Shown in pieces: positions 9,311-33,893 of a stretch of 33,893 nucleotides of DNA. Below the pieces are notes generated by a model. The model made no database searches. It worked only from the letters and a program-made list of their open reading frames with translations, and was not told the DNA's origin. The position numbers were made by a program, and so were the translations under genes. The DNA is from a virus (taxonomy: Duplodnaviria; Caudoviricetes), in the IMG/VR virus record IMGVR_UViG_3300008255_000299, positions 1-33,893 of that record. One strand, given 5' to 3'. Numbering within the stretch: the stretch's first letter is position 1; each line of letters begins with the position of its first letter.

Positions 9311-9351
9311 GAAACCCGCCCCCCTTGAGACACGGGGGCGGGTTTCTTTTT
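9311..9351 (+). terminator. Intrinsic terminator between the convergent arms
   Basis: Perfect 13-bp stem GAAACCCGCCCCC (9311-23) / GGGGGCGGGTTTC (9334-46), 10-nt loop, then TTTTT. May also act on the - strand. Confidence 0.9.
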
Positions 9352-15300: not shown

Positions 15301-17848
15301 CGGCCTCCTCCCGCGCTTCGATCCTGGTGGGGTGGTGACTTGCGAGCCCCCCGTCGCTGAAGACGTCCCAACGGTAAACTAGGTCTTCGTCTCCCGGGGG
15401 AACGAGGACCGGCGCAAGGGGCATTCGCACTCTCACCGCCTTCTTCTCGAACTGAGCAACCACCGCAGTGCGCGAGACTTTGCCCGTCTGCAACTTCAGC
15501 CAATCGAGGATGCCCGATAGTTCCACCTCCTCCCGCTTCACTTTCCCCTTTGAGATGAGCGAGTTGATGTTGCCGCGCCAGGTGGCCGGAGGGAACGCCT
15601 TGTCAGGCATGTCGAGCAGCGCGTTTTGCACCGCGGAGAACAGCCGAAACTTGGAGGGGCCCGCCTCCTGCTGCACTGGTTGCCAGCCCCACTCAAGCAC
15701 GCTATCGCCTCTGGTGAACAAGTCCGAGGCCGCTACTTGGTGCTCCAGCACCACGTAGTCCCCGTTCAGCGCGGCGCCGCCGTGGTCTTCTGCGTAGCCC
15801 TTGACTGGGGTTACCCAATCGCCGGGCCGGACTGGGGAGCTGGCGAACTCGGAGGGCACCGCGCGATAGACGGTGACGAGTGCCCCGGGGTTGCCTCGCA
15901 TCTGGCGCAGGATGCCGAACATCTCCGCGTCGTGCTTGCCCTTGGTGCCGTAGTTCTGCGGCCCGTGAACGGTGTCGTAGACCGTTTGGTCGAAGGGGCC
16001 TTGGGTGAGGTCGTGCAGCGGGGTGCCTTCCTCGCGAGACGGGGGCCGGTCCGCGCTCCAGTAGTCTTCTTGGAACAGTGTTTCGGGCGCTGGGTTCTGG
16101 CCTTCCGCCATCCTGATCGAAAGAGCATTCTGCCGGCCGAGGAACTCTTGCAGAGTTACCCCCTCGTGCTTTGCCAGAGTCACCGCCATGTTGCGCACGA
16201 ACAGCGCAACGGCGCGCGCCTCCTCGGCGGGTCTGCCGACCTCCACCGCCTGGGCGTATGCGTCCCCGTAGACCTTGTCCAAGGTGGCGCGGTAAGCGTC
16301 GTCCGTTTCCGCTCGAGCTGCCGCCTCCGCCATCTGGGGCGCGAAGTCGGCTTCCAGCGGCATCAGCGCTTGCCGTTCGGAAGCGGTGTCGGCGTCTTGG
16401 TGGAATACCGCGTGAGGCATCAAAGCCCGGCCAAGCGCAGACGTGGCTAGCTTGGTCTGCCAGTCCCCAATCGGTAGCTCGACATCGGTGCCTTCTTCGG
16501 CGGCTTGCTTCGCCCTCTCCAAGATGCCGGGGAACGAGGTCTCTAGCTGCTCACTCACCCCCGCGGTGTTGGGGTCTTGCTCGAGCTTCTCGACCGCAGC
16601 GAGCAGCTTGTCCGGCCGGATGTAGACCTTCTTCATGTCCGGCGCGGCTGCGTCGTTGACGAAGGCGGCGCGGTCAGCGGGGGACCGTGTGCTCAGCTTC
16701 GAGTCGGCTTCGAGCTTCTCCAGTAACTGGTGGGCGACCACGGTTTGGTCCGCGTTGGCTGCTCGCCGGTACCCGTCCGTGATGCGCACCCCCATACCCG
16801 GCAACCCCACGAGGGCCATGCCTCGAGCCGTGTGAACGAAGGTGTCCCAAAGCTCGCCGGCCACGTCGACCTCGAACGCCCCCGACCGGTATTGCAGGTG
16901 CGCTTGGTACCGAGCTGCGATCGAGGCCGTCTGCTGCAGCACCTCAGTCACTGACTCAAAGCCCCCGTCGATGGCGTATTCCTTTACCGCGGACAACAGC
17001 AGCGCCTTCTTGGTCTCGACGGAGAGGCCCTTGTTGAACAGCGCCGGCAGCAGCTTCTTGCCGAAGGTCTTCGAGAACGCCGAGGTCACCCGGCCGGCGC
17101 CGACGAGATCGAGCGACGCCATCACCGCGCCCCAGCCATCCGCCAGCGGCGCCGCTTGGCCTGGCGTGTAGCCGGTGTTGATCAGCTCGTTGTAGAGCTC
17201 CCCCGAGGACATCGCGTAAGACACCGATGCAGCGCCTGCCAGTGCACCCGGCGGGCCAGCCACCGCGAAGCCCGCCAAGCCTCCTGTGACGGTCGCAGCG
17301 AGCGAAGTGACCACGTTCACCGCGTCGGCCCCCCAGTTGTCCCCGTCGCGCTCAGCAGCCACCTGCTGCTTTTCACGGCGAATCTGGCGCTGCGCTGGGG
17401 ATTCCACTGGGGCGTCACCGGTCAACCGGCCAATGCTCACCCCGATCGAACGCCGGAGACCTTCCACGCTGTTGTCAAACGCCCGGCCCAGCCAACCGAG
17501 GGTGCTCTCGGTCGATGTCAGGTTTCCGAGGTCGTCTCGGGCCATGGTGAGAAACTCGAAGTCCCCCGCCACTCGGGAGGCCAGCACCGGGAAGTCGCGG
17601 TCGAACGACGGCTCGGTGACTTGGCGCTGCATGGCAACAGTGCGCGCGTGGCTGACATCAGCCAGCACACTCGCCACCGGGCTGCCCAACCGTTCCGCCA
17701 GCCGGCGAGCTTCGCCGAGGTCTTCGGCGGATCGCTCGTCGCTCATGGCCGCAGCCACGCGCGCAGCCCGGTCAATTTGGGACTGCCGCAGCCTGTCCCC
17801 GAAGTTTGGAAGGGCTTCCCCTTCGGGGATCAAACTGAAGTCGGTCAT
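9350..17848 (-). CDS. Giant internal virion (ejection) protein, large polyvalent type, with ART-like domain, EELQSDW domain and HExxH zincin motif
   Basis: 2832 aa; last of three internal-protein genes after the nozzle. Gly/Ala-rich hydrophobic N-terminal segment; YRAVP..PGDWVT..YA..H..EWGW (aa ~661-722); VEELQSDWAQ (aa ~1108); TLFHEMAH..HEAFA..FE.W (aa ~1570). Confidence 0.88.
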   Translation of the reverse strand: MTDFSLIPEGEALPNFGDRLRQSQIDRAARVAAAMSDERSAEDLGEARRLAERLGSPVASVLADVSHARTVAMQRQVTEPSFDRDFPVLASRVAGDFEFLTMARDDLGNLTSTESTLGWLGRAFDNSVEGLRRSIGVSIGRLTGDAPVESPAQRQIRREKQQVAAERDGDNWGADAVNVVTSLAATVTGGLAGFAVAGPPGALAGAASVSYAMSSGELYNELINTGYTPGQAAPLADGWGAVMASLDLVGAGRVTSAFSKTFGKKLLPALFNKGLSVETKKALLLSAVKEYAIDGGFESVTEVLQQTASIAARYQAHLQYRSGAFEVDVAGELWDTFVHTARGMALVGLPGMGVRITDGYRRAANADQTVVAHQLLEKLEADSKLSTRSPADRAAFVNDAAAPDMKKVYIRPDKLLAAVEKLEQDPNTAGVSEQLETSFPGILERAKQAAEEGTDVELPIGDWQTKLATSALGRALMPHAVFHQDADTASERQALMPLEADFAPQMAEAAARAETDDAYRATLDKVYGDAYAQAVEVGRPAEEARAVALFVRNMAVTLAKHEGVTLQEFLGRQNALSIRMAEGQNPAPETLFQEDYWSADRPPSREEGTPLHDLTQGPFDQTVYDTVHGPQNYGTKGKHDAEMFGILRQMRGNPGALVTVYRAVPSEFASSPVRPGDWVTPVKGYAEDHGGAALNGDYVVLEHQVAASDLFTRGDSVLEWGWQPVQQEAGPSKFRLFSAVQNALLDMPDKAFPPATWRGNINSLISKGKVKREEVELSGILDWLKLQTGKVSRTAVVAQFEKKAVRVRMPLAPVLVPPGDEDLVYRWDVFSDGGLASHHPTRIEAREEAARLNRLNREAREEQYVISGGSVVDDTPEWRPTLVIKAGVADRDAIEAALGGAGLNIVESQSSYGRTVLYLAAEGTFYDEQYSARQFLDELLEDYIAVLERAIAATGATDVSVEGGLAEVYAARDVWVLDSPSDRQTFDTEAEAIAARDRALEDYYLEDGYYVVENTDHNERVDELLAERENADAADADVPRQTAFSSYTTPGQKDNYEEHVIVLDAADVMFDAQSSGHGMATAERNFNRLLHIRTSRRLTADGQPLFFVEELQSDWAQESREGFLVGDDERAANVGILQEEITQARQQFDEDANVAALESKLDMAELVSLEVRRGLRLDYARKVGMLEAEKARLESAFARSNTAFEQNELLNDISALDDELLDVREDIRHRAAPLISNRMFAVSVDGEQVTNKAGGPQLFGSRSEAEAYVKKAKKGEVVDLGDRANTTSWVTLGLKRILLLAAEQGYKHVAFATGTQNAALYGLGTVLSEIRYVQHSNIHPRNEKIRGVKLFSLTLVDKGTLQLWVNSRGRVRSAEGPNGHTMTGKKLSDIVGKELAEAALALDKPHTIEVADFEIGAKGMISFYEGVIPRTAKPLLKSLGTKMEVVKVSAVNEYSRGELTREQAVAQLAAGGTVDVKQERGAPRGTRVHSLTELERLEASAATGNPITGFEVERGYMEQLGFELSDEALQKLEGGLALFQDGDENSRGGFVPRLNQILMNSKSDSSTLFHEMAHYYLEELTRIAQATGPESSAARELNTVLDWAGEKPELWALKSTEARRRTHEAFALNFERWLYEGVAPSEPMRDLFSRLRAFIVGVYTDVVQKLNSLFRRRFGEDLPALTDEVRQVFGRMVATEAEVRSLVEAQQFEALFQTEEEFVAAGGTAEDYAKQLEQHQKAEDLAVDELTRKRLRTMELASGATQGELKRLQQQHVVRRREIRKEVEAATRLTLVERVRSWLRNGEHLDDSGAVVSTVGANTSHKLNRGAVVTGMDPNRIRKLEKLNALTNTGLNPDTVAELFGYPSGQQLVDALIDEPEFGAVVKRDTDARMKAEHPELTDPKLIREQVAEALHNKVRRQIVAQELRLLLKSEQPVRMLRKAAKNVAAQRLRSMDVRDVSVSKFALAARRARQEAAAAVKKGDYAAAQSAKRRELLAETMAEVAANFRTEKTKAIALWRKAFKRDEKLTPTRDINVVHILRSLLATLDAGRQDTNPDEYLALVNRYAPELVQEWTPRLNRAREMMAGKPPGGSEARFEALTVDEFREFAELAKGLWHQSAKVRQLQLDGKRVLREDAVAEAKASLAVAYEQREERGLRGEITKTEDAIGATKDYFAHLVRIEHLFRQIGGIFPKLFQRVKDAGNAKRMDLRREAASIEQGIRRLNLGTGTKIVAPELGGYVFGNRVKAKGEILGLALHFYSHGSDSRGVSNRDKLLAGYEWEEGDVQKFLDRMQDEGVLTEADFRWMQSAYDRNGSYMERVQKAHYAAYGFYMKTMKTEPFLTKFGEFQGGYVPARGNPKKVARLATFEQDRLADAYASWPVYERGFTKERSANVAHKLDFNIGNQIIHVESVLNFIHMHPAVRDVSLVLGNIEVQNIINRDIGHKFVQVVIQPWLKRSAEQTLGPPPDSTMAKIVAWLARGAQMGTMFLNTVNALQNYTGFGPILRETKAGYISRASMRYMRGPRKMGHEAAAISPEMAARMERQVFEITQQTNEILLGDGRIKRAGRWFNRNTYIAQTATQHTVDVIGWWAHHDQVFAEQLQQGASAEQAETLAIREADSLIRRTQMAGAPEDISSFEGLGGMWKAIAPFKSWFINWFNYTATRTKLDLRKEGVDRVAALLGTYATSVFLPGVIATLIAEGLRGDFDDEENDGYLDDSAGLIARSHLDLFTGAMPLVGDTVRLAGAFFDDEAWNNRMPSPPYLKLMERLAEIPHQLIDDTLTPGGVLLDAVTAIGAVLHVPLEGFGKRVKFLEELDGSDGAGEVARGLFVGR

Positions 17849-21094: not shown

Positions 21095-24000
21095 TCAGCC
21101 TCCAAAAGAAACGTCCAGGGTGACGCTGCACACGGTAGCGGGCAGCGGTCGAGGCTGGTTGAAAGATACTTGCCCGTCACGGGACCAAGTTTGCTCGATC
21201 AGCTCCCGCGCCTCTTCAGAGCGCAAGCTGAAGTCGCCCGGGAACATGTCAGACAGGTGGCTCATGTCAGGGCCCACTTGCAGCCCAGCGGTCTCATAGA
21301 TCCGCGTGTAAGCGTGCGAGATCGCTTTCACTCGGCCGAGCCCCGCAGCTTCCATCTGTGCGGTGACTGGCATCGTGCGCAGCTCGTTGAAGTAGAGGTC
21401 ACCGATGTGCACGGTGCGGCAGGGATACGGGAGGACCACTTTGCCGTCGCTCGCCACGCTGAGAGTGGCGAACCCGATAGTGCCATCCACCGCCTCCAGC
21501 AATGCGGTGACTCTCTCGTGTTGGCTCAGGGCGGTGAGGTTCCGTAACCGGGTCACGGTCACCCCCCAGTTAGAGAATACACCCACAACTGCCGAGCCCA
21601 CGTTGGTCACCCGGCAAGTCACTTGGCTGGCCGTCTCCCGAGAAGTGATCTGCATCCGCAGACCGGTGTCAGGGAAGTAGAGCACCTCCCCCACCATGTT
21701 GAAGTCGAACGACAACCGGGTGGACGCAACCCTCATCTCGCCGCCTACCCGAAGCGACCCTTTCACGGTTAGGCTTGCAGGGTCCGCTCGCAGAGTGTTG
21801 CGCACGTGGCACATGTCGAGGTGCGCCGAACTGATGGGGCTGCTGATGTTCGTGGATTGCAGGCGAGCGAGGAACCACGCCCCTGTCGATCGGTGCTCCA
21901 GGGTCACGTAGAGACGATCCTCCGCGCCTTCCTGGACTGCTGCCACGGAGCGCACGCTGTAGTGACCTAGCTCGTGCTGGTGCCACCCGGACACCTGCTC
22001 CTCCTCCGCGTAGGTGAGGCCCAGCAGGCGACCGGTGTCGGTTGTGTACCATGCCGCCGGCAACCGCGACTTGGTGGTGGCGGAGTCGACTAGGTTCACG
22101 TTGTCGAAGATGTGCGCCGCTCGAGTGGACTGGTTGGCTCCGCCGAAACTGTTCTCCGTGAGTTGGTAGCCCAACCGGTAGACGTGGTTGCCCCCCGACA
22201 CATAGAGCACCGAGTTGTCCATGACGAGCGGAGTCACTCGGTTGGCGCCCACCGTGGTCTGCAGCCGCAGCTTGGCCGAGGTCGGGGTGAGGGCGTCGGT
22301 GTTCTGCGTGGATAGCGACCAGGTCGCGCTGTTCGTCAGGATCAGCAGCTCGGACACTGGCACGATGTGCCGCACGGACTGCCCTTCCTTCGCTGCGATC
22401 TCTAGCGCAATCCGGTCGGTGTCCAGCTGCGCCCGCCGAGTCACTAGCTCACTGTCACGCCCCAACGAGCTGAACCAGAGCCCTTGCGGCTTTGCCGTGT
22501 TGCCGCCGAACACCCCACGCTGATCGTAGAAGCCGACCGCGCCCGGGTAGTCCAATTGCAGCTCACTGTCAATGCTAGGGGCTTGGGTTGCGTAGTCAGG
22601 GTCTACATTCCGGTCGAGGAACGGGGGGGCCCCCGCCTCGGCGACGAACCCGAAAAGCTCCGTGCCGTCGACTTCCTTGTAGATGCGGTAGGCCGCCGCC
22701 CCCGCCGATGGCGTCCAGCCCACCGTGTTGTAAGCCTCCGCATTGCGGAGCAAGTTGAAGGTGCTCGCCGAAGGCGCCGACCGAGCGTATTCACGCCCCC
22801 GCTCGTCTACCGCGGTGATGATGTAACGGGCCAGCGAGTCTGCGGTTGATTCCGCCACGGTCAGCGTCCCGCCCCCGAAGGTGCTCAGGCTGGACGTGGC
22901 GAGCGCACCGGACAGGTCGAACAGCTCTTGGATGGTTCTGCCCCCTGCTGCAACTAGGCCCACGACGTAGAACCCGTCAGCCACCCCCGTCGTGCTCGGC
23001 GTGCCCGAAGCGTAGACCAAGTCCCCCGCGCCCAAACCGGTGTCACCTACCAGCGTGATGGAGCCGAACGTCCCCACTGCGGCACTCTGCACCTGGATCT
23101 GAGCCCCTCTGAACGGCGTCACGGTTGGGGTGCTCAGCGACGCGTCAGCGGCTAGTGGAGTGCGGTAGGACCATTGGCCCAGTTCCGTGAGATACAGCTC
23201 AAGAGTGGGGTGGTTGCGGTGCGCAAACCTGATCTTGCCCGCGGTCTGGGCGTAGGTGACCTCGTTCAGCTCTGCAGCGGTGTAGTTGTTGGGCAGCTCC
23301 AGCCACGGTGCTGGCACCAACTCCCAATCCGCAGCGCTTGGGACGGCTACCCCCCACACTCCTGCCTTGGCCCTGATGAAGCTCCCTGATGGGAACGGGC
23401 CCAGCGCCGAGCGCAAGAAGCACATGAAGCCCGCCGGGTAGTAACGCTCCGCGGACACCGGTGGGGTGAAGGCTGGAGTCCCGGGGGCAGATACCGAGAC
23501 CGTGTAGGAAGTGCTGCCCGCTACAACTACTCGCGAAGCTTCGAACGCAGACGACGACAGGGGGAACCCGAGGGCTGAGCCAGGGTCATCCGCGACCACC
23601 GTGAACTCTTGCCCATAGTAGGGGTCCACATACCCGTTTGGCGACACTACCGGCGGCGCGACCCCGCCCCCCGTGGTGTTCCATCGCCACCGGGTGCCAA
23701 CCGGCCACCCGTGAGGGGTCGCCAGCACGACGCTCGAAGAAGCATGCCCGTAACCAGACGGGCCGCCCCCGGTCCGAGTGGTCACGGAGACGAGCGGGAT
23801 CGAAGGCCGGTAGTCTTCGGGCAGCCCTGCCTCACGCCAAACCGCCAGCGTGCCCGTGTTGAGACTGGTGATGTCCACCGGGTCGTCCGTCAGCCGTTTG
23901 AACTGCAGCCCGTAGGGGCCGGCTGGCCGAGCCTCGTAGATCGTCGTCGAGTTGAGCCCGCCGGGTTCGCCAGTCCCCCCGGTCGAGATCACGCGCAGTT

Positions 24001-24397
24001 CTTCGAGGTCTGTGAAGTTGTGAGGGCGCTGGGTGTATATGACATCGTTCACCACGTCGATGTTCCCCGAGGTGGCTTGGTCCCCCACCACGAACACATC
24101 GTCGAAGCCCCCGTTGACGCTGATGGGCACCCCGTTTCGGAACAGGCGGAACGACCCCGCGGATAGCGCAACCAGGTAGTCGTCACCGTCATCCTTGAAA
24201 GGGATCAGGCGAGCCCGTGAGTCAAGCGGGGCGATGGTCTCAAACCCCGGGCGCAGCTGCGCCGCGCCTGAGGTCTTCGAAATCCAGTTGAAGAGTCGAG
24301 CCGCCCCAAAGCGGAACTGCTGCAGGTCAGGCCTTCCAAGAAGCTCGGGGCTGATCTCGCCCGCGTTGAACGAATTGTGCAGCAGTTTTGTGTTCAT
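21095..24397 (-). CDS. Tail tubular protein B / nozzle
   Basis: SFNAGEISPEL.GR.DL, G....RPG, RLIPF, YAQT...FAH.NHP, YPGAV.FYDQR..F and EEEQV.GWH.H. Enlarged to 1100 aa. Confidence 0.92.
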   Translation of the reverse strand: MNTKLLHNSFNAGEISPELLGRPDLQQFRFGAARLFNWISKTSGAAQLRPGFETIAPLDSRARLIPFKDDGDDYLVALSAGSFRLFRNGVPISVNGGFDDVFVVGDQATSGNIDVVNDVIYTQRPHNFTDLEELRVISTGGTGEPGGLNSTTIYEARPAGPYGLQFKRLTDDPVDITSLNTGTLAVWREAGLPEDYRPSIPLVSVTTRTGGGPSGYGHASSSVVLATPHGWPVGTRWRWNTTGGGVAPPVVSPNGYVDPYYGQEFTVVADDPGSALGFPLSSSAFEASRVVVAGSTSYTVSVSAPGTPAFTPPVSAERYYPAGFMCFLRSALGPFPSGSFIRAKAGVWGVAVPSAADWELVPAPWLELPNNYTAAELNEVTYAQTAGKIRFAHRNHPTLELYLTELGQWSYRTPLAADASLSTPTVTPFRGAQIQVQSAAVGTFGSITLVGDTGLGAGDLVYASGTPSTTGVADGFYVVGLVAAGGRTIQELFDLSGALATSSLSTFGGGTLTVAESTADSLARYIITAVDERGREYARSAPSASTFNLLRNAEAYNTVGWTPSAGAAAYRIYKEVDGTELFGFVAEAGAPPFLDRNVDPDYATQAPSIDSELQLDYPGAVGFYDQRGVFGGNTAKPQGLWFSSLGRDSELVTRRAQLDTDRIALEIAAKEGQSVRHIVPVSELLILTNSATWSLSTQNTDALTPTSAKLRLQTTVGANRVTPLVMDNSVLYVSGGNHVYRLGYQLTENSFGGANQSTRAAHIFDNVNLVDSATTKSRLPAAWYTTDTGRLLGLTYAEEEQVSGWHQHELGHYSVRSVAAVQEGAEDRLYVTLEHRSTGAWFLARLQSTNISSPISSAHLDMCHVRNTLRADPASLTVKGSLRVGGEMRVASTRLSFDFNMVGEVLYFPDTGLRMQITSRETASQVTCRVTNVGSAVVGVFSNWGVTVTRLRNLTALSQHERVTALLEAVDGTIGFATLSVASDGKVVLPYPCRTVHIGDLYFNELRTMPVTAQMEAAGLGRVKAISHAYTRIYETAGLQVGPDMSHLSDMFPGDFSLRSEEARELIEQTWSRDGQVSFNQPRPLPATVCSVTLDVSFGG

Positions 24398-24400
24398 GCT

Positions 24401-27298
24401 CTAGTCCCACGCATAGCTCTGCGCGGATGGGTTGGAGTGACGCAGCCGCTGCGCCGTGTGCTCCTTCGCCAGATCGGTGTAGTAGTTAGCTAGCTGCATT
24501 TGCGCTTGAGCCAAGGCCGCCCCCTTGTCCCCCTGCGCCAGTGCCGGCGCGATCTCTGCGGCTAGCTGGTGCGCGAGGGCGTTGGTGTAGTGCTGCGAAT
24601 AGTCAGCAGGGTCTGGGGACGCTGAGGTGTAGCGCAAAGTCACGGCCGACAAGTTGCAGTAGAGCACGGAGCCTTCGATCGAATGCTCGATCTCGTCGCG
24701 CACAACGGCGCCGGCAGCGTCGGGGCCCAGCCCCACTACGCTCAGGAAGTTGGACGGCAAGCGGTAGGCATATTGCCAATCCAGGTCTGCCCTGGAGTTG
24801 GCCACCTGCACCAGGGTCTGCGTTTTGGTGGCGAACTGCCACGCAAACGATTCCAGCAAGGTGCGCGAAGCCACTGGGTAATACCGCAAGCACAACCGAG
24901 CTGCCGCCGAGTCTTCAGTCAACGATTGGATGGCCTTCGTTTCCCCCACGTTCTTCAACGCTTGGTTGCAGATGTCGATCCGCGTGCGGTCGCTCAGGGA
25001 CGGCGCAATAGTCGCCCAGTCAGCAAAAGCGTGCAGGCCCAAAGTCCACTGGTAGCCCCCGCTGTAGTGGATGCCGTCGTAGCCCACGACCGCGTCGGGA
25101 AGGGCCCGGGTAACAAAGTAAGGATCTTCCTCCGCCAGCTCTGTCAGGATCTCGTTGAATGCCACATTACTGGCGTAACCGTCCATGCCCCAATCCCCAC
25201 CCACCGACGTGGGGAGTTGTGGTTGCCACCACGGGATTGTCTCGGCCGGGCCGTCCCACAGACCTAGCTCGACGATCTTCGCCCGCACCGCGGCCACGAA
25301 TGCCCTGATGTTGTCGGGATACCTCGCGAGCATGGCTGCGTCGGTGGTGTCAGTCTCCCCTTGGGGGAAGAACACGCCCACGATCTTGAGAGTGTGGCCG
25401 AGCGCCGCTGCAGCACGCTTGGCACACTCCAGCTTGGTGACCAGGCGAGCGTAGCAGTTATCCACCTCGCCGCTCGGCGACCAATCGAGCAGCACTTTGG
25501 GGTCAAACCCTCCATGCGCGACTCCAGCCACTGAGTTCCCTGAGACCTCGCGGCGAGCTAGTGCAGTCCCTCCTACGTTCGCGTGCACGAGGTAGAGGGG
25601 GCGCCCGAGCTTCTCGTGCATCGCCAACGCGAGAGACGTGGTGAAGGTCGCTCCGGGCTCTCCTCGCTGCAACCCCACGAAGTTCCCGAAGTAGGGTTGG
25701 TAACTCTCGGGGATCGGACTGGCGTTGTCGAAATTGAACCCGGGGGGCATTGGGTTGCCTCGGTCCGGGTGCTCCAGTTGGAAGACGGTAACAAAGCCCG
25801 CAGCCAAGGTGGCGTCTGCGATGGGGGTGCCGCCATAAGACGTGGCTACTTGGTAGGAGCCTGCCGCATAGTCGACGTTCACCGCGTAGAGAGTCTGGCC
25901 CGCCCCCTGAAATGACCCCGAGGTAGGGGCGGGGGTGATGGCCGTCGACCCCAGATTGTAGTAGTCGTAGATGCCAATGCGCATTCCTTCGAACACCGCG
26001 CCGAGCGTGCTCTGAAAGGTCACCGCGGTCCCGGGCGTGACTGCCGCATAGCTATGCGCGACGGCGACCCCGCCAGTGGACGCCGGCCCTTGCATTCGGC
26101 ACTCAGGCACGAAGTGCTGGAACTCCTGCCAGCCCACGTCTTCGTTGTTGATCTGCTGGGGCTCGATCTCGAAGGTGTCCCCGATCTGGGGGATGAAGGG
26201 CATCACCTCCAGGGTCTTCAAGTGGAAGTGATCGGTAGGGGCCGCAGATACTAGCTCGCAGTCGTCCAGGTCGAACGCTAGCCCTGCCATCGTGCCCGAG
26301 GTCCACCGCACACGCGTTCCCGCCATGGTCGCGTCGAAGGACTGCGGGAGGACCGCTAGCATCTGAGTGCCCGAAGGGGCTGCGCCCGTGCTCAGCACCT
26401 CCGAGCCCCCTCGGTTGGTGGTCACGTAAAACTTGGGGCTGCCCGCCGTGTTGTCTACCCGCGCTACCCAGTAGTCGGTGGTAGTTGCGACCAAATCCCC
26501 TAGCGACCCCGTGGTGGTGAACCGCAGGCGTTGCCCAACTCGCATATGGCGGGTGGGGCAACGCAGCTCGACCGGGGCGCCAATCGGGCTTCCCGGGATT
26601 GTGACGGGGTAGGGCTGCACCACGTGCCCCCCAAGGGTGGCGGTGGTGCCCCCTAGCAAAGCGGCCTCGAGCAGGCTGCCGCCGTCGTGGTAGCCCCCGA
26701 AGCGGACGTTGGTGGGGATGGTTTGGTTGGTCCCAACCGCGTAGCACTGCAGCGGGAGCTTGTAAATCTCCCCCGGCACGTGGGGGGTGGGGTCCGACGA
26801 GAGCAGCGTAATGAGCCCCGGGGACGCACTTGACCAACCGGGGCCGATGATGTGCGAAGTGCCCGTGCCTTCACGCACGACCACCAGACCCGAAGGGGGA
26901 TCCTGAAACGCGCAGGCCAGCTCGACCTTGGCGGTGTCTGAGCCCGGCTGCGAGAAGGAAGCTGCATAGCCGGGGAACGCGGATGTAAAGTGGCTAGTGA
27001 ACGCGCCACTGCCAACGTCCTGCATCTCGAAGTAGGTTGAGACCGGGTTGAACTGCGCGAGGCGCATGACCGCCGTTGTCGCCCGACCCCGCAGCCGGAA
27101 GTTGCGGTAGCGCTCCGGCCACACCCCGGGGAGCGTGTAGGTGTCCTGAGTAAAGGATCTGCTGACGGTTGGAGTCTTGGGCCCCGCGTCAGGCCGGCGA
27201 ACCGAAGTTGCCGGCGCCTGCGCCTCGAACCAGGCCAGCTCGCCAACGAGGTTGCCTTGGGACTGCCCCGCAACCAGGATTCCGTATTGCTCCGCCAT
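24401..27298 (-). CDS. Fusion: split SGNH (SASA-type) O-acetylesterase + beta-rich insert + C-terminal tail tubular protein A (adaptor)
   Basis: ILVAGQSQ (aa 7-14), VGGT (aa 575), QGETD (aa 646), DGIH (aa 741). From aa ~770: IDICNQAL..VGE...I.SLTE.S..A.LC...Y......L....W.FA...WQYAY.LP. Confidence 0.88.
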   Translation of the reverse strand: MAEQYGILVAGQSQGNLVGELAWFEAQAPATSVRRPDAGPKTPTVSRSFTQDTYTLPGVWPERYRNFRLRGRATTAVMRLAQFNPVSTYFEMQDVGSGAFTSHFTSAFPGYAASFSQPGSDTAKVELACAFQDPPSGLVVVREGTGTSHIIGPGWSSASPGLITLLSSDPTPHVPGEIYKLPLQCYAVGTNQTIPTNVRFGGYHDGGSLLEAALLGGTTATLGGHVVQPYPVTIPGSPIGAPVELRCPTRHMRVGQRLRFTTTGSLGDLVATTTDYWVARVDNTAGSPKFYVTTNRGGSEVLSTGAAPSGTQMLAVLPQSFDATMAGTRVRWTSGTMAGLAFDLDDCELVSAAPTDHFHLKTLEVMPFIPQIGDTFEIEPQQINNEDVGWQEFQHFVPECRMQGPASTGGVAVAHSYAAVTPGTAVTFQSTLGAVFEGMRIGIYDYYNLGSTAITPAPTSGSFQGAGQTLYAVNVDYAAGSYQVATSYGGTPIADATLAAGFVTVFQLEHPDRGNPMPPGFNFDNASPIPESYQPYFGNFVGLQRGEPGATFTTSLALAMHEKLGRPLYLVHANVGGTALARREVSGNSVAGVAHGGFDPKVLLDWSPSGEVDNCYARLVTKLECAKRAAAALGHTLKIVGVFFPQGETDTTDAAMLARYPDNIRAFVAAVRAKIVELGLWDGPAETIPWWQPQLPTSVGGDWGMDGYASNVAFNEILTELAEEDPYFVTRALPDAVVGYDGIHYSGGYQWTLGLHAFADWATIAPSLSDRTRIDICNQALKNVGETKAIQSLTEDSAAARLCLRYYPVASRTLLESFAWQFATKTQTLVQVANSRADLDWQYAYRLPSNFLSVVGLGPDAAGAVVRDEIEHSIEGSVLYCNLSAVTLRYTSASPDPADYSQHYTNALAHQLAAEIAPALAQGDKGAALAQAQMQLANYYTDLAKEHTAQRLRHSNPSAQSYAWD

Positions 27299-27341: not shown

Positions 27342-27929
27342 TTAGCCGATGTCAACGCTGGCCGGGTAGATACCGCCCACATACTTGCTGCCCGGCATGG
27401 GTGCCCCCGGCGACATCGAATCCTTCGTGAGGATCGCGTCAATCGCACCCGAGAAAGTGCCCGTGCCGCTGAACTGGTAGGCCACGCGCATGTAGCGCTT
27501 GCCCAGCGATCGAGACAGCAGAGAGTTCTGCGGGTTGATGGCGCCGCCCTGGGGCGAAGCAATGGGTAGCGTGAAAGTCTGCCCCGCCGCCAACGACACC
27601 GCGAAGCCGACCCCCAATTGATTGACGATCTCGTGGCTGGCGGGTAGGAAGACCGCCGTGGCGTTCCCCGAGCTTGGGGGGCTCACGTCGTCGATGAACA
27701 CCACCGCGCGGAAAGCTGCTGCCACGTTGAACGTGGAGCTGGAGAACCCCGACGCTGCTCTGAAATGCACGTAGAGTTGCTCCCCCGCTGCGATGTCAGG
27801 GCTAGAGACAACCCCTTTGGCGTCCGTGAACTGCCCGAGGTCGATCCAGTTGTCAGACTGGTAGATCCCCGCAGTCACCGCGGAGAAAACTTGCGCGTTC
27901 GAGAACGCGGCTGCTTGGTCGAGGATCAT
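27342..27929 (-). CDS. Bbp16-like capsid cement/decoration protein (copy 2)
   Basis: MILD....FS.AQ.....S.N.IDLG...DI..GE.LYV and RY.RV.Y...GT...G.IDA.L. TAAGGAG RBS. Confidence 0.8.
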   Translation of the reverse strand: MILDQAAAFSNAQVFSAVTAGIYQSDNWIDLGQFTDAKGVVSSPDIAAGEQLYVHFRAASGFSSSTFNVAAAFRAVVFIDDVSPPSSGNATAVFLPASHEIVNQLGVGFAVSLAAGQTFTLPIASPQGGAINPQNSLLSRSLGKRYMRVAYQFSGTGTFSGAIDAILTKDSMSPGAPMPGSKYVGGIYPASVDIG

Positions 27930-27941
27930 GCCGGGGGCTCC

Positions 27942-28472
27942 TTAGACGATGGTCGATGTGGGGTAGAACTTCTTGCCGCCCTTCTGGTTGCCGTGCACGA
28001 AGTGCGCGTCAATCGTGGCGTTGGCGAGATTGGTGCCACCCACCGCCGACACCGCGCCGCCGAGGTAGCGTTGCAAGATGCTATCCTTGAACTCGGGGTC
28101 GAACTGCACACGCAGCACGATCTCTTTGCCCGCCACCATGGAAGCCACGGGAATCTCGTCCGTGCGGATCAAGACCGTGGGGGAACCGAGTAGCCCGGTT
28201 GCCGAGGTAACCAGCTCGAACACGACCGAAGTCACACCCGAGAACGTCGCGCTGCCCACGTTGGTGAACACGAGGTAGAGGGGCTCGCCCTCGCCGATGT
28301 CCCGTGTGAGTGACGCACCGGGTGCGAGGTTGACGCCCAGACCCGCGGGGTCTGTCATCGCCGAGACTGCGACGCCGCCCACGTCCACCGAGGACTCGGT
28401 GACGGTGCGCCCGCCGGCTGCCGTGGTGAGCACCTGCGAGGTGGCCACCTGTAAGTTGATGTCTGAGATCAT
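27942..28472 (-). CDS. Bbp16-like capsid cement/decoration protein (copy 1)
   Basis: MISD......SQ......SVDV...RDIGEGEPLYLV and QRYLG....G.N....IDA. Directly follows the capsid gene. Confidence 0.8.
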   Translation of the reverse strand: MISDINLQVATSQVLTTAAGGRTVTESSVDVGGVAVSAMTDPAGLGVNLAPGASLTRDIGEGEPLYLVFTNVGSATFSGVTSVVFELVTSATGLLGSPTVLIRTDEIPVASMVAGKEIVLRVQFDPEFKDSILQRYLGGAVSAVGGTNLANATIDAHFVHGNQKGGKKFYPTSTIV

Positions 28473-28535: not shown

Positions 28536-29567
28536 CTAGAGGACTTCCGCCTCATCAACTCGCAGCGCATCGCAGCGGCGAATTGGGACGCCCAAGCAGC
28601 TCAGGTAGCGCGTCGGCGAACCGAACTGCGTGAGACCTTCTTGCAACGCAAGCGCGCCTTGGCTCTTCTCCATCGCGATCCGGGCGAGCGCACTGTGCGC
28701 CAACCGGTTCACGTAGAACGCGGGCCTGCACATGTTCAGGTTCGGAATGCGGTAGACAGCCCTCACCATTTGGTGGAGCAGGTTGTTGAGGCTCGCGGGG
28801 TTTTGGAGGCCGCCGAGGATCTGCGAATCGCTCGTATCAATGTTGCAGATCCGGACCACGTACCGCCAGTCCTGAACTACCAGACCGTGGTGCCACTGGA
28901 ACAGGTCGACGAAGGCCTGCATCCGGTTCGCGGCGACGCCGCCGGCACCGTAGACCGTCTGCTCGCCGAGGTCTTGGTGAACGATGCCGGCCTGCGAGCC
29001 TTCGGGGAAGGTGCAGTAGACCGTTTCGTCACCCCAGCCCACAAGGTAGACCGACATTTGACCCGCGCCAGTACCGCCGGCGTTGATCACGTTCTGGGAG
29101 TTTGCCGCTCCCGAGAGCACGCCGAAGCGGTCGCCCAGACCGAGGTAGGACGCCGGCTGCGTGGCAGTGCGCCCGTAGAACATCGTGTTGGCCTGCGTCT
29201 GGCCCATCGACTCGATGTGCGTCCGGCTTTGGCCGAAGCGGAACTTGTTCACGTCGCCACTCAGGCGAGCGAGCACGCAGTCCGTTTCGCTTCGGGCTTC
29301 GAGCATGCCGATGCCTTCATCGACTTGCGCGGTGGTTGCCTTGCTGGGTGGGATGCCTTGGTTGACCTGGCGCCAGTAGGACGCCGGCAAACCGGTGGAG
29401 ATCGTCACCCGGTGGTGAGTCTTGCCGTTGGCCTGCTTGAAAACGCAGTCCTCCAGAATCTCGTTTGTTTGCGAGAGGACGTTGGTGACGACGGCGATCT
29501 TGCCATCGGGGTCGAACATCTTGGCCCAGTCGGCCAAGGTGAGGCTGGTGTTGCTGAGTGCTGCCAT
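28536..29567 (-). CDS. Major capsid protein (BPP-1 Bbp17-like)
   Basis: TLADWAK..DPDG....V..L.QTNEILED, TGLP...WR..NQG, W..GL.V.DWRYVVRICNID and G.PIRR.DAL...EA.V. Confidence 0.95.
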   Translation of the reverse strand: MAALSNTSLTLADWAKMFDPDGKIAVVTNVLSQTNEILEDCVFKQANGKTHHRVTISTGLPASYWRQVNQGIPPSKATTAQVDEGIGMLEARSETDCVLARLSGDVNKFRFGQSRTHIESMGQTQANTMFYGRTATQPASYLGLGDRFGVLSGAANSQNVINAGGTGAGQMSVYLVGWGDETVYCTFPEGSQAGIVHQDLGEQTVYGAGGVAANRMQAFVDLFQWHHGLVVQDWRYVVRICNIDTSDSQILGGLQNPASLNNLLHQMVRAVYRIPNLNMCRPAFYVNRLAHSALARIAMEKSQGALALQEGLTQFGSPTRYLSCLGVPIRRCDALRVDEAEVL

Positions 29568-30582: not shown

Positions 30583-30870
30583 TTATGTGCCCCCTGCGGA
30601 AGCGAAAGCCGCTCGCAGGAACACGAACACCGCCTGCGAGATCCACGTCTCGACCACGTCTTGGACCGCTGACATCTCAGATGCGGCGATGTTGGCCATC
30701 GACGCGCGCAGGTATTTGGCCTCCTGCTCCGCCTTGGCAGGGTCGCTCAGTGCCATGGCCGCGATGCGAGTAGCATCTGCTGCAATGGTGGCCAACTGCA
30801 TCTGCATCTCCGGGTTCGCCACTCGTGCCTGAAGTTCCAGCAGCAACGCTTCCGGCGTCGGGTTGCTCAC
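30583..30870 (-). CDS. hypothetical helical protein with hydrophobic C-terminus
   Basis: GTG at 30870 overlaps the lipoprotein stop (GTGA). 95 aa. Confidence 0.65.
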   Translation of the reverse strand: MSNPTPEALLLELQARVANPEMQMQLATIAADATRIAAMALSDPAKAEQEAKYLRASMANIAASEMSAVQDVVETWISQAVFVFLRAAFASAGGT

Positions 30871-31088
30871 TTCAACACCCCTGGCGCCGTGTAGAGTCGC
30901 GCCCGCCACGTCTCGACCACCAGCAGCCGGCGGTCCTTCTCCGGCTGGTTCAACAGTGGGTCGGCCAGCACGTACGCGGAGTAGCTCGGCGCGATGGCTT
31001 CGAACGTGGCAAGGTCTGCTTGCACGTATCCCGAGCCGGGAGCGGTGCAGGATGCGAGCAGCAAGCCCGCGAGGAGTAGTTTCTTCAT
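30867..31088 (-). CDS. Small lipoprotein (possible o-spanin)
   Basis: MKK + hydrophobic core + lipobox LASC; ATGA overlap. Confidence 0.78.
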   Translation of the reverse strand: MKKLLLAGLLLASCTAPGSGYVQADLATFEAIAPSYSAYVLADPLLNQPEKDRRLLVVETWRARLYTAPGVLK

Positions 31089-31405
31089 GATGCTCTCACT
31101 TCGCGCAGCAGCTCGTGCAGCTTGGCCTCGCGTTCACGGTTGTCCTTCAGCAGGATGACTTGGGTTTCCTGCATCTGTGCCATGCCTTCCTTCACATCAG
31201 CGCTGACGTTGCGAATTGTCTGACTGAACTCGGTGGTGATCCCGGCGATCGTCTGATCCTTTCGCCGCGACTCCTCGAGTTCGAGCACGCGCTGCTCCTT
31301 GAGATACTTCAGCACGAGCCAGCCCATGCCGAGCGCGACGCCAATGCCGCCACCGCTCAGCAACTCCGACCATGGGACCACCGCTGCTACTTGTTCGAGT
31401 TGCAT
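31085..31405 (-). CDS. Single-TM coiled-coil protein (holin- or i-spanin-like)
   Basis: N-terminal TM (GGIGVALGMGWLVL) followed by a charged heptad-like region. Confidence 0.65.
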   Translation of the reverse strand: MQLEQVAAVVPWSELLSGGGIGVALGMGWLVLKYLKEQRVLELEESRRKDQTIAGITTEFSQTIRNVSADVKEGMAQMQETQVILLKDNREREAKLHELLREVRAS

Positions 31406-31408
31406 CTG

Positions 31409-33106
31409 CTAGATCCCTCCGTAGCCCTGGAACGCCCCCGCGAGATCGGGGGCGTCTCGGTTGGCAGCTGCCACGTCTCGCATGGCGCCGGCTTGCACCG
31501 CCTGCGCCTCGGCCTGCGCTTGCTGGCTCTGCGCTTCTGCTCGGGCTTGCCGGATAGCAGCCACGTCGTTCGGGTCGCGCAAGTTGTCGGGCTCGATGGC
31601 GAGCATGTCCGCGTAATCGCGCGCCACGTTGTCCGCGTCCACAATGTCGAGCATCTCGGGGAACGCGCCTCCGCCGGCCGAGACCATCGAGAGGAAGCGC
31701 TCCAAGGTCACGACCCCCGAGGCTTGCTGCAGCTGCTGTAGCATCGAGACGAACTCGACCTGCAAAGGCACGCCCTGCAATTCACTGGGCACCGCGGGGA
31801 GCAAGCCCGCCTCCTCCATGTAGCCGAACACGCGCTCGACCAGAGGACGAAGCAACTCGTTGTGCAGACGCTCCAGCGCTGGGCCGAGCATCAGCATCTT
31901 CTCTTCGTGCATCTCGTCAACTTCGGTCGCGGTTTTTGCGCGGCGCGAGTTCATGAGCAGCATGAACAAGTCGTTGTAGAGAGCGCGGCTGATCTGGTCC
32001 TGCGTGCGCTCGATCTGGTCACTGAGCGCAACCACGTCGAGGTTCACCTTGAACATCGACTCGATCTTCTGGTTCGCTCCGTTCGCCACTGGGGTGTAGC
32101 CACCTGGGCGTAGCTTGATGTCCTTCTGCGTCAGGCCCGGCGGTCCTTGCAACGGGGGCTTGGCGCCGAAGGCGACTGCTTCACCCATTGCAAACTGCAT
32201 CTTCTGCAGTCGCTTCGCGTGGGGCAGCACCTCGTGGCCTGGGCCGGAGCCCCACGAGTTCAGGTCAGTGACTGACCACCGCGGCACCAAGTAGGGGAAT
32301 GTTTTATAGCCGCCCTCGCGCAAGATGCCGCGGGTGCGGTTGTCGCGTCTCTCACCTTGCAGGAAGTAGACCGACCGGAAGCGCATGTTGAGCTGGTCGA
32401 GCTTGTCCATGAGCCGATCCTCGCGTGGCTCCACCGCGTGCGTGACCGTGTGAGTGGTCTCAAGCATTCCCTCGTCGTATTGGTGGCGGATCTCTTGCGT
32501 CACGTTTTCCAATCCGAACTCAGCCACGATCTGGCCAACCGTCATCTCGAACTCGCGGTAGACACAGTTCACTACCCCGAGCGGACTGGTGGCTAGGAAG
32601 TAGCTGCCCACCGTGAGCGTGTGCAGGTGCACCACGGTGTCGAAGTTCCGCTCCATCAGCACGCAAGCGGTGCCGAAGGCGCTGATCTCTTCGTACGCGT
32701 TGTGCAGCGCTTGGTAGACGTTCGAGCGCGACATCACGAAGCGCATGCGCCGAGCTGCCTCCGCGAAGAACGCGCGCACGGAATAGACTTCCTCCAGCCT
32801 GGGGTCAGGCGGCTTCAACCTGAACCAGTTGCGCGCGGGGCTCGACCCGCCGCCCATGAGGAACGCACCCATGCCACGGTGCGCGCGAACTGCAGTCGAG
32901 TCGTAAACCGCGTTCTGCTCGGTGACCTGCTTGTTGGCCCGAGTCTTCTGGGTGAAGCGGCCTCGCCACGGACACATCTGCGCAGCGATACTCTCGTGCG
33001 ATGAGCGTTGGTCGCTGTATTCAGACTTCAGCCGGTTGTGACGCGCGAGCAACCGCTGTAGCAACAGCTCGTTGGTCTTGCGCTCCGGTGCCGTAGCTAC
33101 TGCCAT
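31409..33106 (-). CDS. Portal / head-to-tail connector (BPP-1 Bbp21-, T7 gp8-like)
   Basis: 565 aa. YDSTA.RA, SPAR.WF.L, FGTA, FPY.VPRW, G.GPG, TATEV....EEK..MLGP..ERL..E.L.PL. Confidence 0.96.
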   Translation of the reverse strand: MAVATAPERKTNELLLQRLLARHNRLKSEYSDQRSSHESIAAQMCPWRGRFTQKTRANKQVTEQNAVYDSTAVRAHRGMGAFLMGGGSSPARNWFRLKPPDPRLEEVYSVRAFFAEAARRMRFVMSRSNVYQALHNAYEEISAFGTACVLMERNFDTVVHLHTLTVGSYFLATSPLGVVNCVYREFEMTVGQIVAEFGLENVTQEIRHQYDEGMLETTHTVTHAVEPREDRLMDKLDQLNMRFRSVYFLQGERRDNRTRGILREGGYKTFPYLVPRWSVTDLNSWGSGPGHEVLPHAKRLQKMQFAMGEAVAFGAKPPLQGPPGLTQKDIKLRPGGYTPVANGANQKIESMFKVNLDVVALSDQIERTQDQISRALYNDLFMLLMNSRRAKTATEVDEMHEEKMLMLGPALERLHNELLRPLVERVFGYMEEAGLLPAVPSELQGVPLQVEFVSMLQQLQQASGVVTLERFLSMVSAGGGAFPEMLDIVDADNVARDYADMLAIEPDNLRDPNDVAAIRQARAEAQSQQAQAEAQAVQAGAMRDVAAANRDAPDLAGAFQGYGGI

Positions 33107-33109
33107 GCG

Positions 33110-33424
33110 TTACCCTAGCGTGCGAGACGCAGCTGCGCCGGTGACGGCAGTGGTGGAGTCAAGAGCGGTAGGGGTTGAGGCACTCGTGGGGTTCGTGCCC
33201 GTCCGCGTCGCCTGAGCAATTGCGATCTGGCGGCCTCGCCGGCGTTGCGCTTCGCGTCCCTGCGAACGCGCAGCGGTTGCCGACTGCTGCGACATGGCTT
33301 GCCGTTGCGCTGCTTGCTGCCGGTTCCGCCCCTTGCGCGCCGCGGCCGATTGCGTCTCACCTGCGTAGATGCCGTAGCCCGTTCCGATCACGGCTGCCAC
33401 TGCGCCAGCTGCTGCCCAGCCCAT
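33110..33424 (-). CDS. Small basic virion protein upstream of portal
   Basis: ATG at 33424 overlaps the GNAT stop (TGATG). Gly/Ala N-terminus, Q/R-rich middle and terminal TLG, as in small pre-portal proteins of podoviruses. Confidence 0.72.
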   Translation of the reverse strand: MGWAAAGAVAAVIGTGYGIYAGETQSAAARKGRNRQQAAQRQAMSQQSATAARSQGREAQRRRGRQIAIAQATRTGTNPTSASTPTALDSTTAVTGAAASRTLG

Positions 33425-33893
33425 CAGACCCCCTCGCTGTAGATGACGTCCCGGCACTTGAACCGGGTGGACTTCTCTAGCTGCTTGTGCAGCTCCGAGC
33501 CCTGCTTCGCGTGCCAAGCAACTTCGCTCGCGCCTCGCTCCTTGGCAAAAGCTCGCGTGGCTGACATCAGACGGCCCCCGATGCGGGTGCCCCGGTGGTC
33601 CTCGCGCACGAACAGCACGTCGTTCTGCACGTAGCTGAAGTCGTAGTGCAGGTGCCGGGGGACGAAGATGCTGACGGAGTAACCCACGATCTCTTCGCTG
33701 TGCCCCCGGCTGGCAGCCACGTAGGCCGCCACCACGTGCAAGTCTCCCCGCTCCTCGATCGCATCGAGCACCGGCCATGCAACATCTAGCCCACGCTCAG
33801 CGTCTACCGATAACTCGGTGAAGTGGGCCTCGAACAAGGCCCCCGCTTCTCGCCTGAGTTGGGCGAGCGGGATCTGCTGCACGGATAGCTGCA
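33424..33893 (-). CDS. GNAT-family N-acetyltransferase (start probably at or just beyond the window edge)
   Basis: IVGY..F...HLHY, DVLFV.EDHRGTRIG.RLM (acetyl-CoA motif A) and AKERGA. Frame is open to the right edge. Confidence 0.85.
   Translation of the reverse strand, partial: QLSVQQIPLAQLRREAGALFEAHFTELSVDAERGLDVAWPVLDAIEERGDLHVVAAYVAASRGHSEEIVGYSVSIFVPRHLHYDFSYVQNDVLFVREDHRGTRIGGRLMSATRAFAKERGASEVAWHAKQGSELHKQLEKSTRFKCRDVIYSEGV

Follow-up and report, generated by a model that had tools for sequence, protein, structure and literature searches.

A head-tail adaptor fused to a split SASA-type esterase: a candidate enzymatic neck collar in a podovirus and its relatives

The DNA analysed here, 33,893 nucleotides of the IMG/VR virus record IMGVR_UViG_3300008255_000299 (hereafter the window), is a podovirus genome fragment with a G+C content of about 64%, and the gene of interest encodes a single protein of 965 amino acids (aa) in which a split SASA-type SGNH esterase is joined to a head-tail adaptor. 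The interpretation that we favour, with moderate confidence, is that this adaptor with its N-terminal esterase forms a twelve-copy collar at the phage neck and removes O-acetyl groups from a host surface polysaccharide. Adaptors are usually treated as passive connectors, and phage enzymes that modify glycans are expected on fibres or spikes; if the interpretation is true, enzymes that act on the host surface would have a common location at the neck, whether the phage has a short or a long tail. The parts of the gene are as follows, with model confidence given as the predicted local distance difference test score (pLDDT).

24401..27298, minus strand: fusion gene, 965 aa; split SASA/SGNH esterase with inserted beta-barrels, then a podovirus head-tail adaptor (sequence and model)
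27254..27298, minus strand: aa 1-15, with the first core strand and Block I (G11-Q12-S13), in which Ser13 would be the nucleophile and Gln12 the SASA oxyanion-hole Gln
26750..26977, minus strand: beta-barrel 1, aa ~108-183; mean pLDDT 82, weak matches to phage tail tube and tailspike barrels (Z 7.4 or less)
26345..26686, minus strand: beta-barrel like E1 FCCH and endosialidase barrels, aa ~205-318; leads only
26153..26338, minus strand: further all-beta segment, aa ~321-382; secondary structure in models and a conserved block
25766..26077, minus strand: beta-barrel of riboflavin-synthase/reductase-type topology, aa ~408-511; Z 6.9 or less
25004..25663, minus strand: aa 546-765, C-terminal SGNH half with Block II Gly (575-578), Block III QGExD (646-650) and Block V D741-x-x-H744 (Pfam, alignment and model)
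24404..24991, minus strand: complete head-tail adaptor, aa 770-965 (PHROG394; Carin-1 connector, BPP-1 and epsilon15 type), by sequence and fold

The open reading frame (ORF) had been described in an earlier, sequence-only reading, and its layout was borne out throughout. It translates without an internal stop, and the motifs lie where they had been placed, with GQS at aa 11-13 (27260-27268), VGGT at aa 575-578 (25565-25576), QGETD at aa 646-650 (25349-25363) and DGIH at aa 741-744 (25067-25078). The middle is rich in Gly, Thr and Pro as claimed (11.8%, 11.0% and 7.2% of aa 111-510), and the adaptor domain begins with DRTRIDICN at 24965-24991. A second assembly, L018 (44,877 bp, of which about 37.3 kb was examined), reaches beyond the window and is 99.95% identical to it across 19,490 bp (10 differences), without a gap. 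As for a lost stop codon, which had been raised for positions 24960-25030, contigs from four of four runs span the junction with no difference listed; one of these runs (X1) is possibly the source of the window, and the other three belong to three separate studies (labelled aquifer, hot spring and cold spring). No RNA dataset was listed for the sequence, a result that has no bearing on its expression. All ten homologues found, at 43-62% identity, have the same fusion and layout. With the junction bridged in every run, the identity of L018 at that site and the recurrence of the fusion in 87 of 148 distant representatives (below), an assembly or sequencing artefact, lost stop or frameshift can be set aside for all practical purposes. 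In comparisons with the related loci L001 and L002, non-synonymous differences are below synonymous ones in each part of the gene.

The esterase part was recognized from both its signature and its predicted fold. Pfam SASA (PF03629) matches aa 548-675, partially, with an expectation value (E) of 1.3e-6 and 28.6 bits against a cut-off of 24.8. The SASA signature consists of a Gln beside the Block I Ser, a Block III (H)QGE instead of Asn, and a Block V His with or without Asp (PMC9487903), and the protein carries Q12-S13, Q646-G647-E648 and D741/H744 accordingly. GQS is present in nine of nine homologues whose N-terminus is present, and in L001 too, while S13, QGExD, D741 and H744 are kept in every close homologue that covers them (D741 and H744 in 11 of 11 rows). 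The full-length model has a mean pLDDT of 67. In a wide fold search, its residues 3-765 matched the acetylxylan esterase 1ZMB with Z 17.9 (root-mean-square deviation, rmsd, 3.1; 211 aligned), and further matches fell within one Z unit of it, namely 2APJ (At4g34215) at 17.4, the Pan3 tailspike 9VYH at 17.2 and NanS 3PT5 at 17.0. The alignment of the model to SASA esterases starts at residue 1-3. Because residues 3-765 align to 1ZMB, the Ser13 strand would return to the core of the esterase and complete one SGNH fold around the inserts, and, if that strand does return, the insert of about 480 aa would loop out as three to four small beta-barrels. The protein thus modelled has the fold, the Block I Gln-Ser, the Block III QGE and the Block V His in common with the SASA/CE6 acetylesterases (PF03629; 1ZMB, 2APJ, E. 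coli NanS 3PT5), but differs from them in being split by the barrels after Block I and in being fused to a ring protein. The model fold search also gave an SGNH-like match to N4 gp65, for which no discussion as an esterase was found in the excerpts of literature consulted, and the BFVD entry A0A516LTA4 (1084 aa) matches the entire model with a template modelling (TM) score of 0.55.

In the adaptor part, PHROG394 matches aa 772-960 with E 3.9e-40, over profile positions 3-182 of 190, and the best solved relative is the Carin-1 connector 8CK1, by sequence (E 8.3e-15) as well as by structure (E 1.9e-11, TM by target 0.73); model residues 771-959 superimpose on it with Z 16.8 and rmsd 2.5 over 177 aligned residues. 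The gene occupies the adaptor position, between the cement and nozzle genes, and there is no other PHROG394 match among the 22 window ORFs scanned. Sequence, fold and pre-nozzle position are shared with the Carin-1 connector and the PHROG394 adaptors of BPP-1, epsilon15 and HTVC010P-like podoviruses, although the 8CK1 chain is a stand-alone protein of 222 aa and the adaptor of the window is fused to an esterase, with about five residues separating the last esterase helix from it in the model. From this kinship, we infer a 12-mer adaptor ring under the portal in the virion.

When modelled alone (aa 100-512), the insert forms a string of small beta-barrels with pLDDT 82. The barrel at aa ~205-318 gave leads to 4P22 (Z 7.0, rmsd 2.7, 79 aligned) and 4HIZ (Z 6.2, rmsd 2.7, 77 aligned), and ESM Atlas leads for it stay below 0.9; the segment at aa ~321-382 is, on its modelled secondary structure, probably a barrel like barrel 1. 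Foldseek gave no match to the insert at E≤0.001, and neither did a Pfam scan of it. No fibre docking domain was found by Pfam or PHROG, and the insert model has no helix run or beta-helix. BLASTP detected no sequence repeats inside the insert or common to the insert and the nozzle; the likeness of the barrels is structural only.

The mechanism that we propose would begin with an uncleaved protein, twelve copies of which assemble below the portal and hold their esterases on the outside, where the variable barrels might add reach or grip on a glycan. Twelve domains of 4-5 nm need a calculated ring radius of 7.6-9.5 nm, which we take to be near the size of the adaptor ring. De-acetylation could then let the particle bind a capsule or slime layer reversibly, or make its way through it, by analogy with esterase tailspikes. 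The sequence-only reading had proposed up to twelve esterase and carbohydrate-binding arms on the adaptor: the fusion and the split SASA fold stand and the twelve-copy collar is likely, while the binding of sugar by the barrels and the O-acetylated glycan substrate are parts that we infer.

Known virions offer partial parallels. The Schitoviridae phages Moo19 and B2 have tailspikes with esterase activity, and host O-acetylation is needed for their entry (PMC11654681, where the G7C esterase tailspike is also cited). The tailspikes of Moo19, B2 and G7C, and that of Pan3 (9VYH, a fold match only), share with the candidate collar a virion-borne esterase or SGNH fold that likely acts on O-acetylated host glycan. 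Those tailspikes are separate docked spikes, whereas the window enzyme is covalently part of the adaptor and has relatives on long-tailed necks as well. The 12-mer adaptor of roseophage R4C likewise has an extra N-terminal domain, Ig-like and displayed at the neck periphery, but this is a single domain of 106 aa without an enzyme, to which its authors give a stabilising role (PMC10276861). In the cultured Vibrio phages phiVC8 and VP2, a 741-aa tail tubular protein (PHROG9239) combines a PHROG394-related adaptor with more than 500 aa of extra domains; that extension is C-terminal and consists of Ig domains and a Gly-rich domain without an esterase, in contrast to the N-terminal esterase of the window. 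The Peru-2 esterase was considered as a precedent and rejected, being encoded by a separate gene (bioRxiv 10.64898/2026.06.25.734500).

The fusion was found to extend well beyond the window. A profile of aa 1-765 alone, which meant that the adaptor part could not drive the matches, was searched against 1.84 billion representatives and gave 386 matches at E≤1e-3, of which the best 150 were listed. Adaptors were counted in 148 of those listed (all except P0004 and P0011): 87 end in a podovirus PHROG394 adaptor, detected with a hidden Markov model (HMM) from 12 stand-alone adaptors; 30 end in an SU10-type adaptor (nine by Pfam PF24175, five of these above the cut-off, and the others by a local HMM from seven of those); six end in the siphovirus Ad1 adaptor (PHROG477/PF20557); and three end in a gpW-like adaptor of about 70 aa (two by PHROG2545/118 and one by a local HMM). 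The remaining 22 have no adaptor match, several of them being fragments, and four (P0032, P0038, P0069 and P0107) have a common tail of about 160 aa. This tail also occurs in locus L043, after a Mu-type head and before Neck1, and has no match among PHROG, Pfam or PDB adaptors; it may be akin to Mu gp36, and L043 is here called Mu-like. Matches of the tail to TAL repeats were discarded as spurious, as no single stretch passes.

An initial scan of viral contigs gave no match, and 67 loci were then available, 65 from IMG/VR and two from GTDB, with 43 podovirus adaptors, 13 Ad1, four gpW-like and seven without an adaptor match. The two GTDB loci, in bins that hold four and three podovirus portal matches, look like binned phage contigs. 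Wherever a locus was annotated, the fused gene took the place at which an adaptor gene normally stands. The order in L030 is portal, head genes, esterase-Ad1, Hc1, Ne1, tail terminator, chaperone, tape measure and tail-tip genes, by which it is a long-tailed phage with a full long-tail module. L036 and L040 have the lambda-like order terminase, esterase-gpW, portal, and L043 has portal, head genes, esterase with the 160-aa tail, and Neck1. In L095 and L097, the esterase gene comes after the SU10 portal and capsid genes, with an adaptor match in L097 only. A quick tree of 139 esterase halves, by a quick method only and with rows lacking an adaptor class or shorter than 170 aa left out, needs 12 adaptor-label changes against a minimum of four; Ad1 needs six, all forced by starred branches. 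The esterase appears to behave as a portable neck module that was joined to different adaptors many times, and that repeated joining makes an accessory adsorption device likelier than a general substitute for fibres.

A broader proposal, on which we are tentative and somewhat short of even belief, is that the enzymatic collar is a widespread virion organ, which was joined several times over to at least four and possibly five adaptor families among podoviruses, Ad1 siphoviruses, lambda-like and Mu-like phages, with hosts that are probably one group with an O-acetylated coat, with exchangeable barrel arms, and with a role as the main receptor-binding device in fibre-poor podoviruses including that of the window. 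If true, one host lineage shared across adaptor classes would explain the partner swaps, and the module would mark out a large group of uncultured phages from aquatic and subsurface habitats and would point to an O-acetylated coat on their hosts. A literature search in which subscription journals were mostly not covered found no description of an adaptor-esterase fusion. Among deposited phages (50,697 records), there was no match to aa 1-765 or to P0140; P0047 gave 248 matches, of which the 15 listed are confined to its Ad1 part, and none of them covers 80% of the query. New here are the count across adaptor classes, the gene orders, the tree, the Ser-less members and the junction check across runs.

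The catalytic residues are kept in most of the family. Among the 139 esterase halves, H744 is retained in 133, D741 in 119, E648 in 127 and D/E650 in all 139, and a strict pattern detects a Block I Ser in 111 of them and a loose one in 125, many of the misses being N-truncated records. Several observations nevertheless weigh against an enzymatic collar acting on host glycans. At least six full-length relatives lack the Ser (P0024, P0035, P0055, P0120, P0160 and P0162), and a group of loci has GQN instead of GQS (L053, L055, L056, L061, L062, L069-L071 and L092) and is probably catalytically dead; the Ser-less relatives and the GQN loci imply that the fusion can persist without catalysis. Judged on these residues, catalysis would be the rule in the family, with dead versions persisting. 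For the meeting of Ser13 with Asp741 and His744 despite the insert, which the earlier reading had proposed to check by modelling, the two halves do co-fold in the monomer model, but the loops bearing Ser13 and Asp741 have pLDDT below 50 (aa 12-54 and 739-742), which makes an assembled triad tentative. No known sugar-binding module is matched by the barrels above Z 8, the best matches including the endosialidase barrel 4HIZ. With an identity of only some 25% to that of the window, the SU10-type esterases may be a separate recruitment. SASA substrates span from sialic acid to acetylxylan (PMC9487903), and the authors of the R4C study judge the Ig-like domain of that adaptor unlikely to act in adsorption, being near the head (PMC10276861).

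The sequence-only reading also had the collar replacing tail fibres. As a general role this was not supported: the same esterase is found on Ad1 and gpW-like adaptors, podovirus relatives have separate fibre- or spike-like genes, and replacement is not the general reason for the fusion because long-tailed phages carry it too, with a neck that is far from the tail tip. A narrower form, in which the collar takes the place of fibres as the chief receptor-binding organ of this podovirus only, is unlikely, although it would be compatible with the enzymatic collar that we favour. In its support, no tail-fibre or tailspike family is matched among the 22 window ORFs scanned, save for a weak tail-fibre match of the esterase itself, and the sole fibre-like candidate in the 37.3 kb seen of L018, one of three ORFs scanned in the stretch that separates the terminase genes, is a possible short fibre by sequence:

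L018:183-761, plus strand, past the right end of the window: 192-aa gene, coiled-coil-like N-terminus, C1q-like (BclA_C, E 3.8e-4, below cut-off)

The ORF that follows a fused adaptor, a putative nozzle, has 917-1429 aa (23 of 28 loci with an ORF above 400 aa), against 729-998 aa (nine complete cases among 14 stand-alone adaptors). Six natural variants were seen in the fusion gene (aa 16, 432, 478, 527, 531 and 579), and all change residues and lie in aa 1-765, with none in the adaptor, a pattern that is not significant alone (p 0.17 for six of six non-synonymous, two of the six coming from single low-depth contigs). On the other side, about 7.6 kb of the genome lies outside the 37.3 kb of 44.9 kb in which no large fibre gene was found. 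The complete relative G001 has a separate beta-helix-like protein with Atlas scores up to 0.96, the complete relative G002 has a 587-aa virion-protein-like gene after the portal, and L097 has a 905-aa gene and a LamG gene, in addition to the presence of the same esterase on adaptors of long-tailed phages.

It is improbable, in our estimation, that the SGNH domain is mainly a binding or scaffold unit that presents the barrels, with catalysis dispensable. In its favour are the full-length members without Ser, three of which (P0035, P0055 and P0162) lack the His as well, and the distance from Ser to QGE, which varies from 197 to 1162 aa across the family; however, the window protein and most of the family retain the Ser, the His, the QGE and the Block I Gln.

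Slightly more doubtful still is a precursor, from which the esterase would be cleaved or released, or an enzyme that would act on a non-glycan target, for example in assembly or lysis. N-terminal processing of tail proteins does exist, as in A1002 gp41 (PMC13730344), and Peru-2 virions contain an abundant GDSL esterase that did not appear in the resolved structure and for which a place within the head was suggested (bioRxiv 10.64898/2026.06.25.734500). At eight of 28 distinct junctions, an in-frame ATG lies within 15 codons before the adaptor motif. The window gene, however, has no ATG, GTG or TTG in those 15 codons, which led us to reject an internal restart yielding a free adaptor in this phage; the model leaves only the five or so residues between esterase and adaptor, and release of the enzyme would make its repeated fusion to adaptors in particular difficult to account for.

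The neighbouring genes form a late operon on the minus strand, in the order portal, scaffold, major capsid, two Bbp16-like cement genes, fusion gene, nozzle and three internal virion proteins.

31409..33106, minus strand: portal protein (PF12236), by Pfam and PHROG matches; its ring is expected to bear the adaptor
28536..29567, minus strand: major capsid protein, by Pfam and PHROG matches
27942..28472, minus strand: Bbp16 capsid cement protein, by Pfam and PDB matches
27342..27929, minus strand: second Bbp16-like cement/decoration paralogue, directly upstream of the fusion gene; natural-variation hotspot
21095..24397, minus strand: nozzle (tail tubular B) of 1100 aa; the matching profile has 712 positions
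9350-17848, minus strand: internal virion protein, 2832 aa, LPD22 and ParB-like matches (Pfam and PHROG)
9311..9346, no strand assigned: hairpin with 13-bp perfect arms, between converging operons and after the last late gene; long T-run on the plus strand

To judge from its length against the profile, the nozzle is enlarged by inserts, which resemble the barrels of the fusion gene by eye, with no significant match by BLASTP. The hairpin does lie at the operon end, where the earlier reading had placed a terminator. Because its long T-run is on the plus strand, it suits the converging operon better as a terminator than the late operon, for which the minus strand offers just TTTC in place of the T-run.

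The second Bbp16-like paralogue holds five of the ten differences between the window and L018, all residue-changing, in 588 of 19,490 bp (binomial p about 6e-6, the gene having been picked after inspection of the data), and may decorate the capsid on the side that faces the host, with diversifying selection acting on it. A role of the Bbp16 paralogues as GP4-type chain-fibre subunits was unsupported, their PDB matches being capsid cement or decoration proteins.

Among the relatives, P0013 (1463 aa) is an independent adaptor fusion with a LamG domain and two PHROG394 copies, the second with a CBM5/12 match inside it, and in the esterase-adaptor fusions P0125, P0154 and P0159 the adaptor itself is split by an insert of about 50-60 aa. 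Seven loci (L046, L053, L055, L061, L062, L064 and L074) have an in-frame ATG six codons before the adaptor motif, like the starts of stand-alone adaptors; such a junction ATG is either a relic of fusion or a second start. In L043, the genes after Neck1 (L043:3300-21819) match no PHROG family. A GNAT acetyltransferase gene (33424-33882, minus strand) precedes the portal in the window, and the same is seen in relatives. After the portal, within 30867-31405 (minus strand), lie a small ORF that resembles a lipoprotein, with a motif like a lipobox, and an ORF with a membrane helix; by eye they are spanin- and holin-like and suggest a diderm host.

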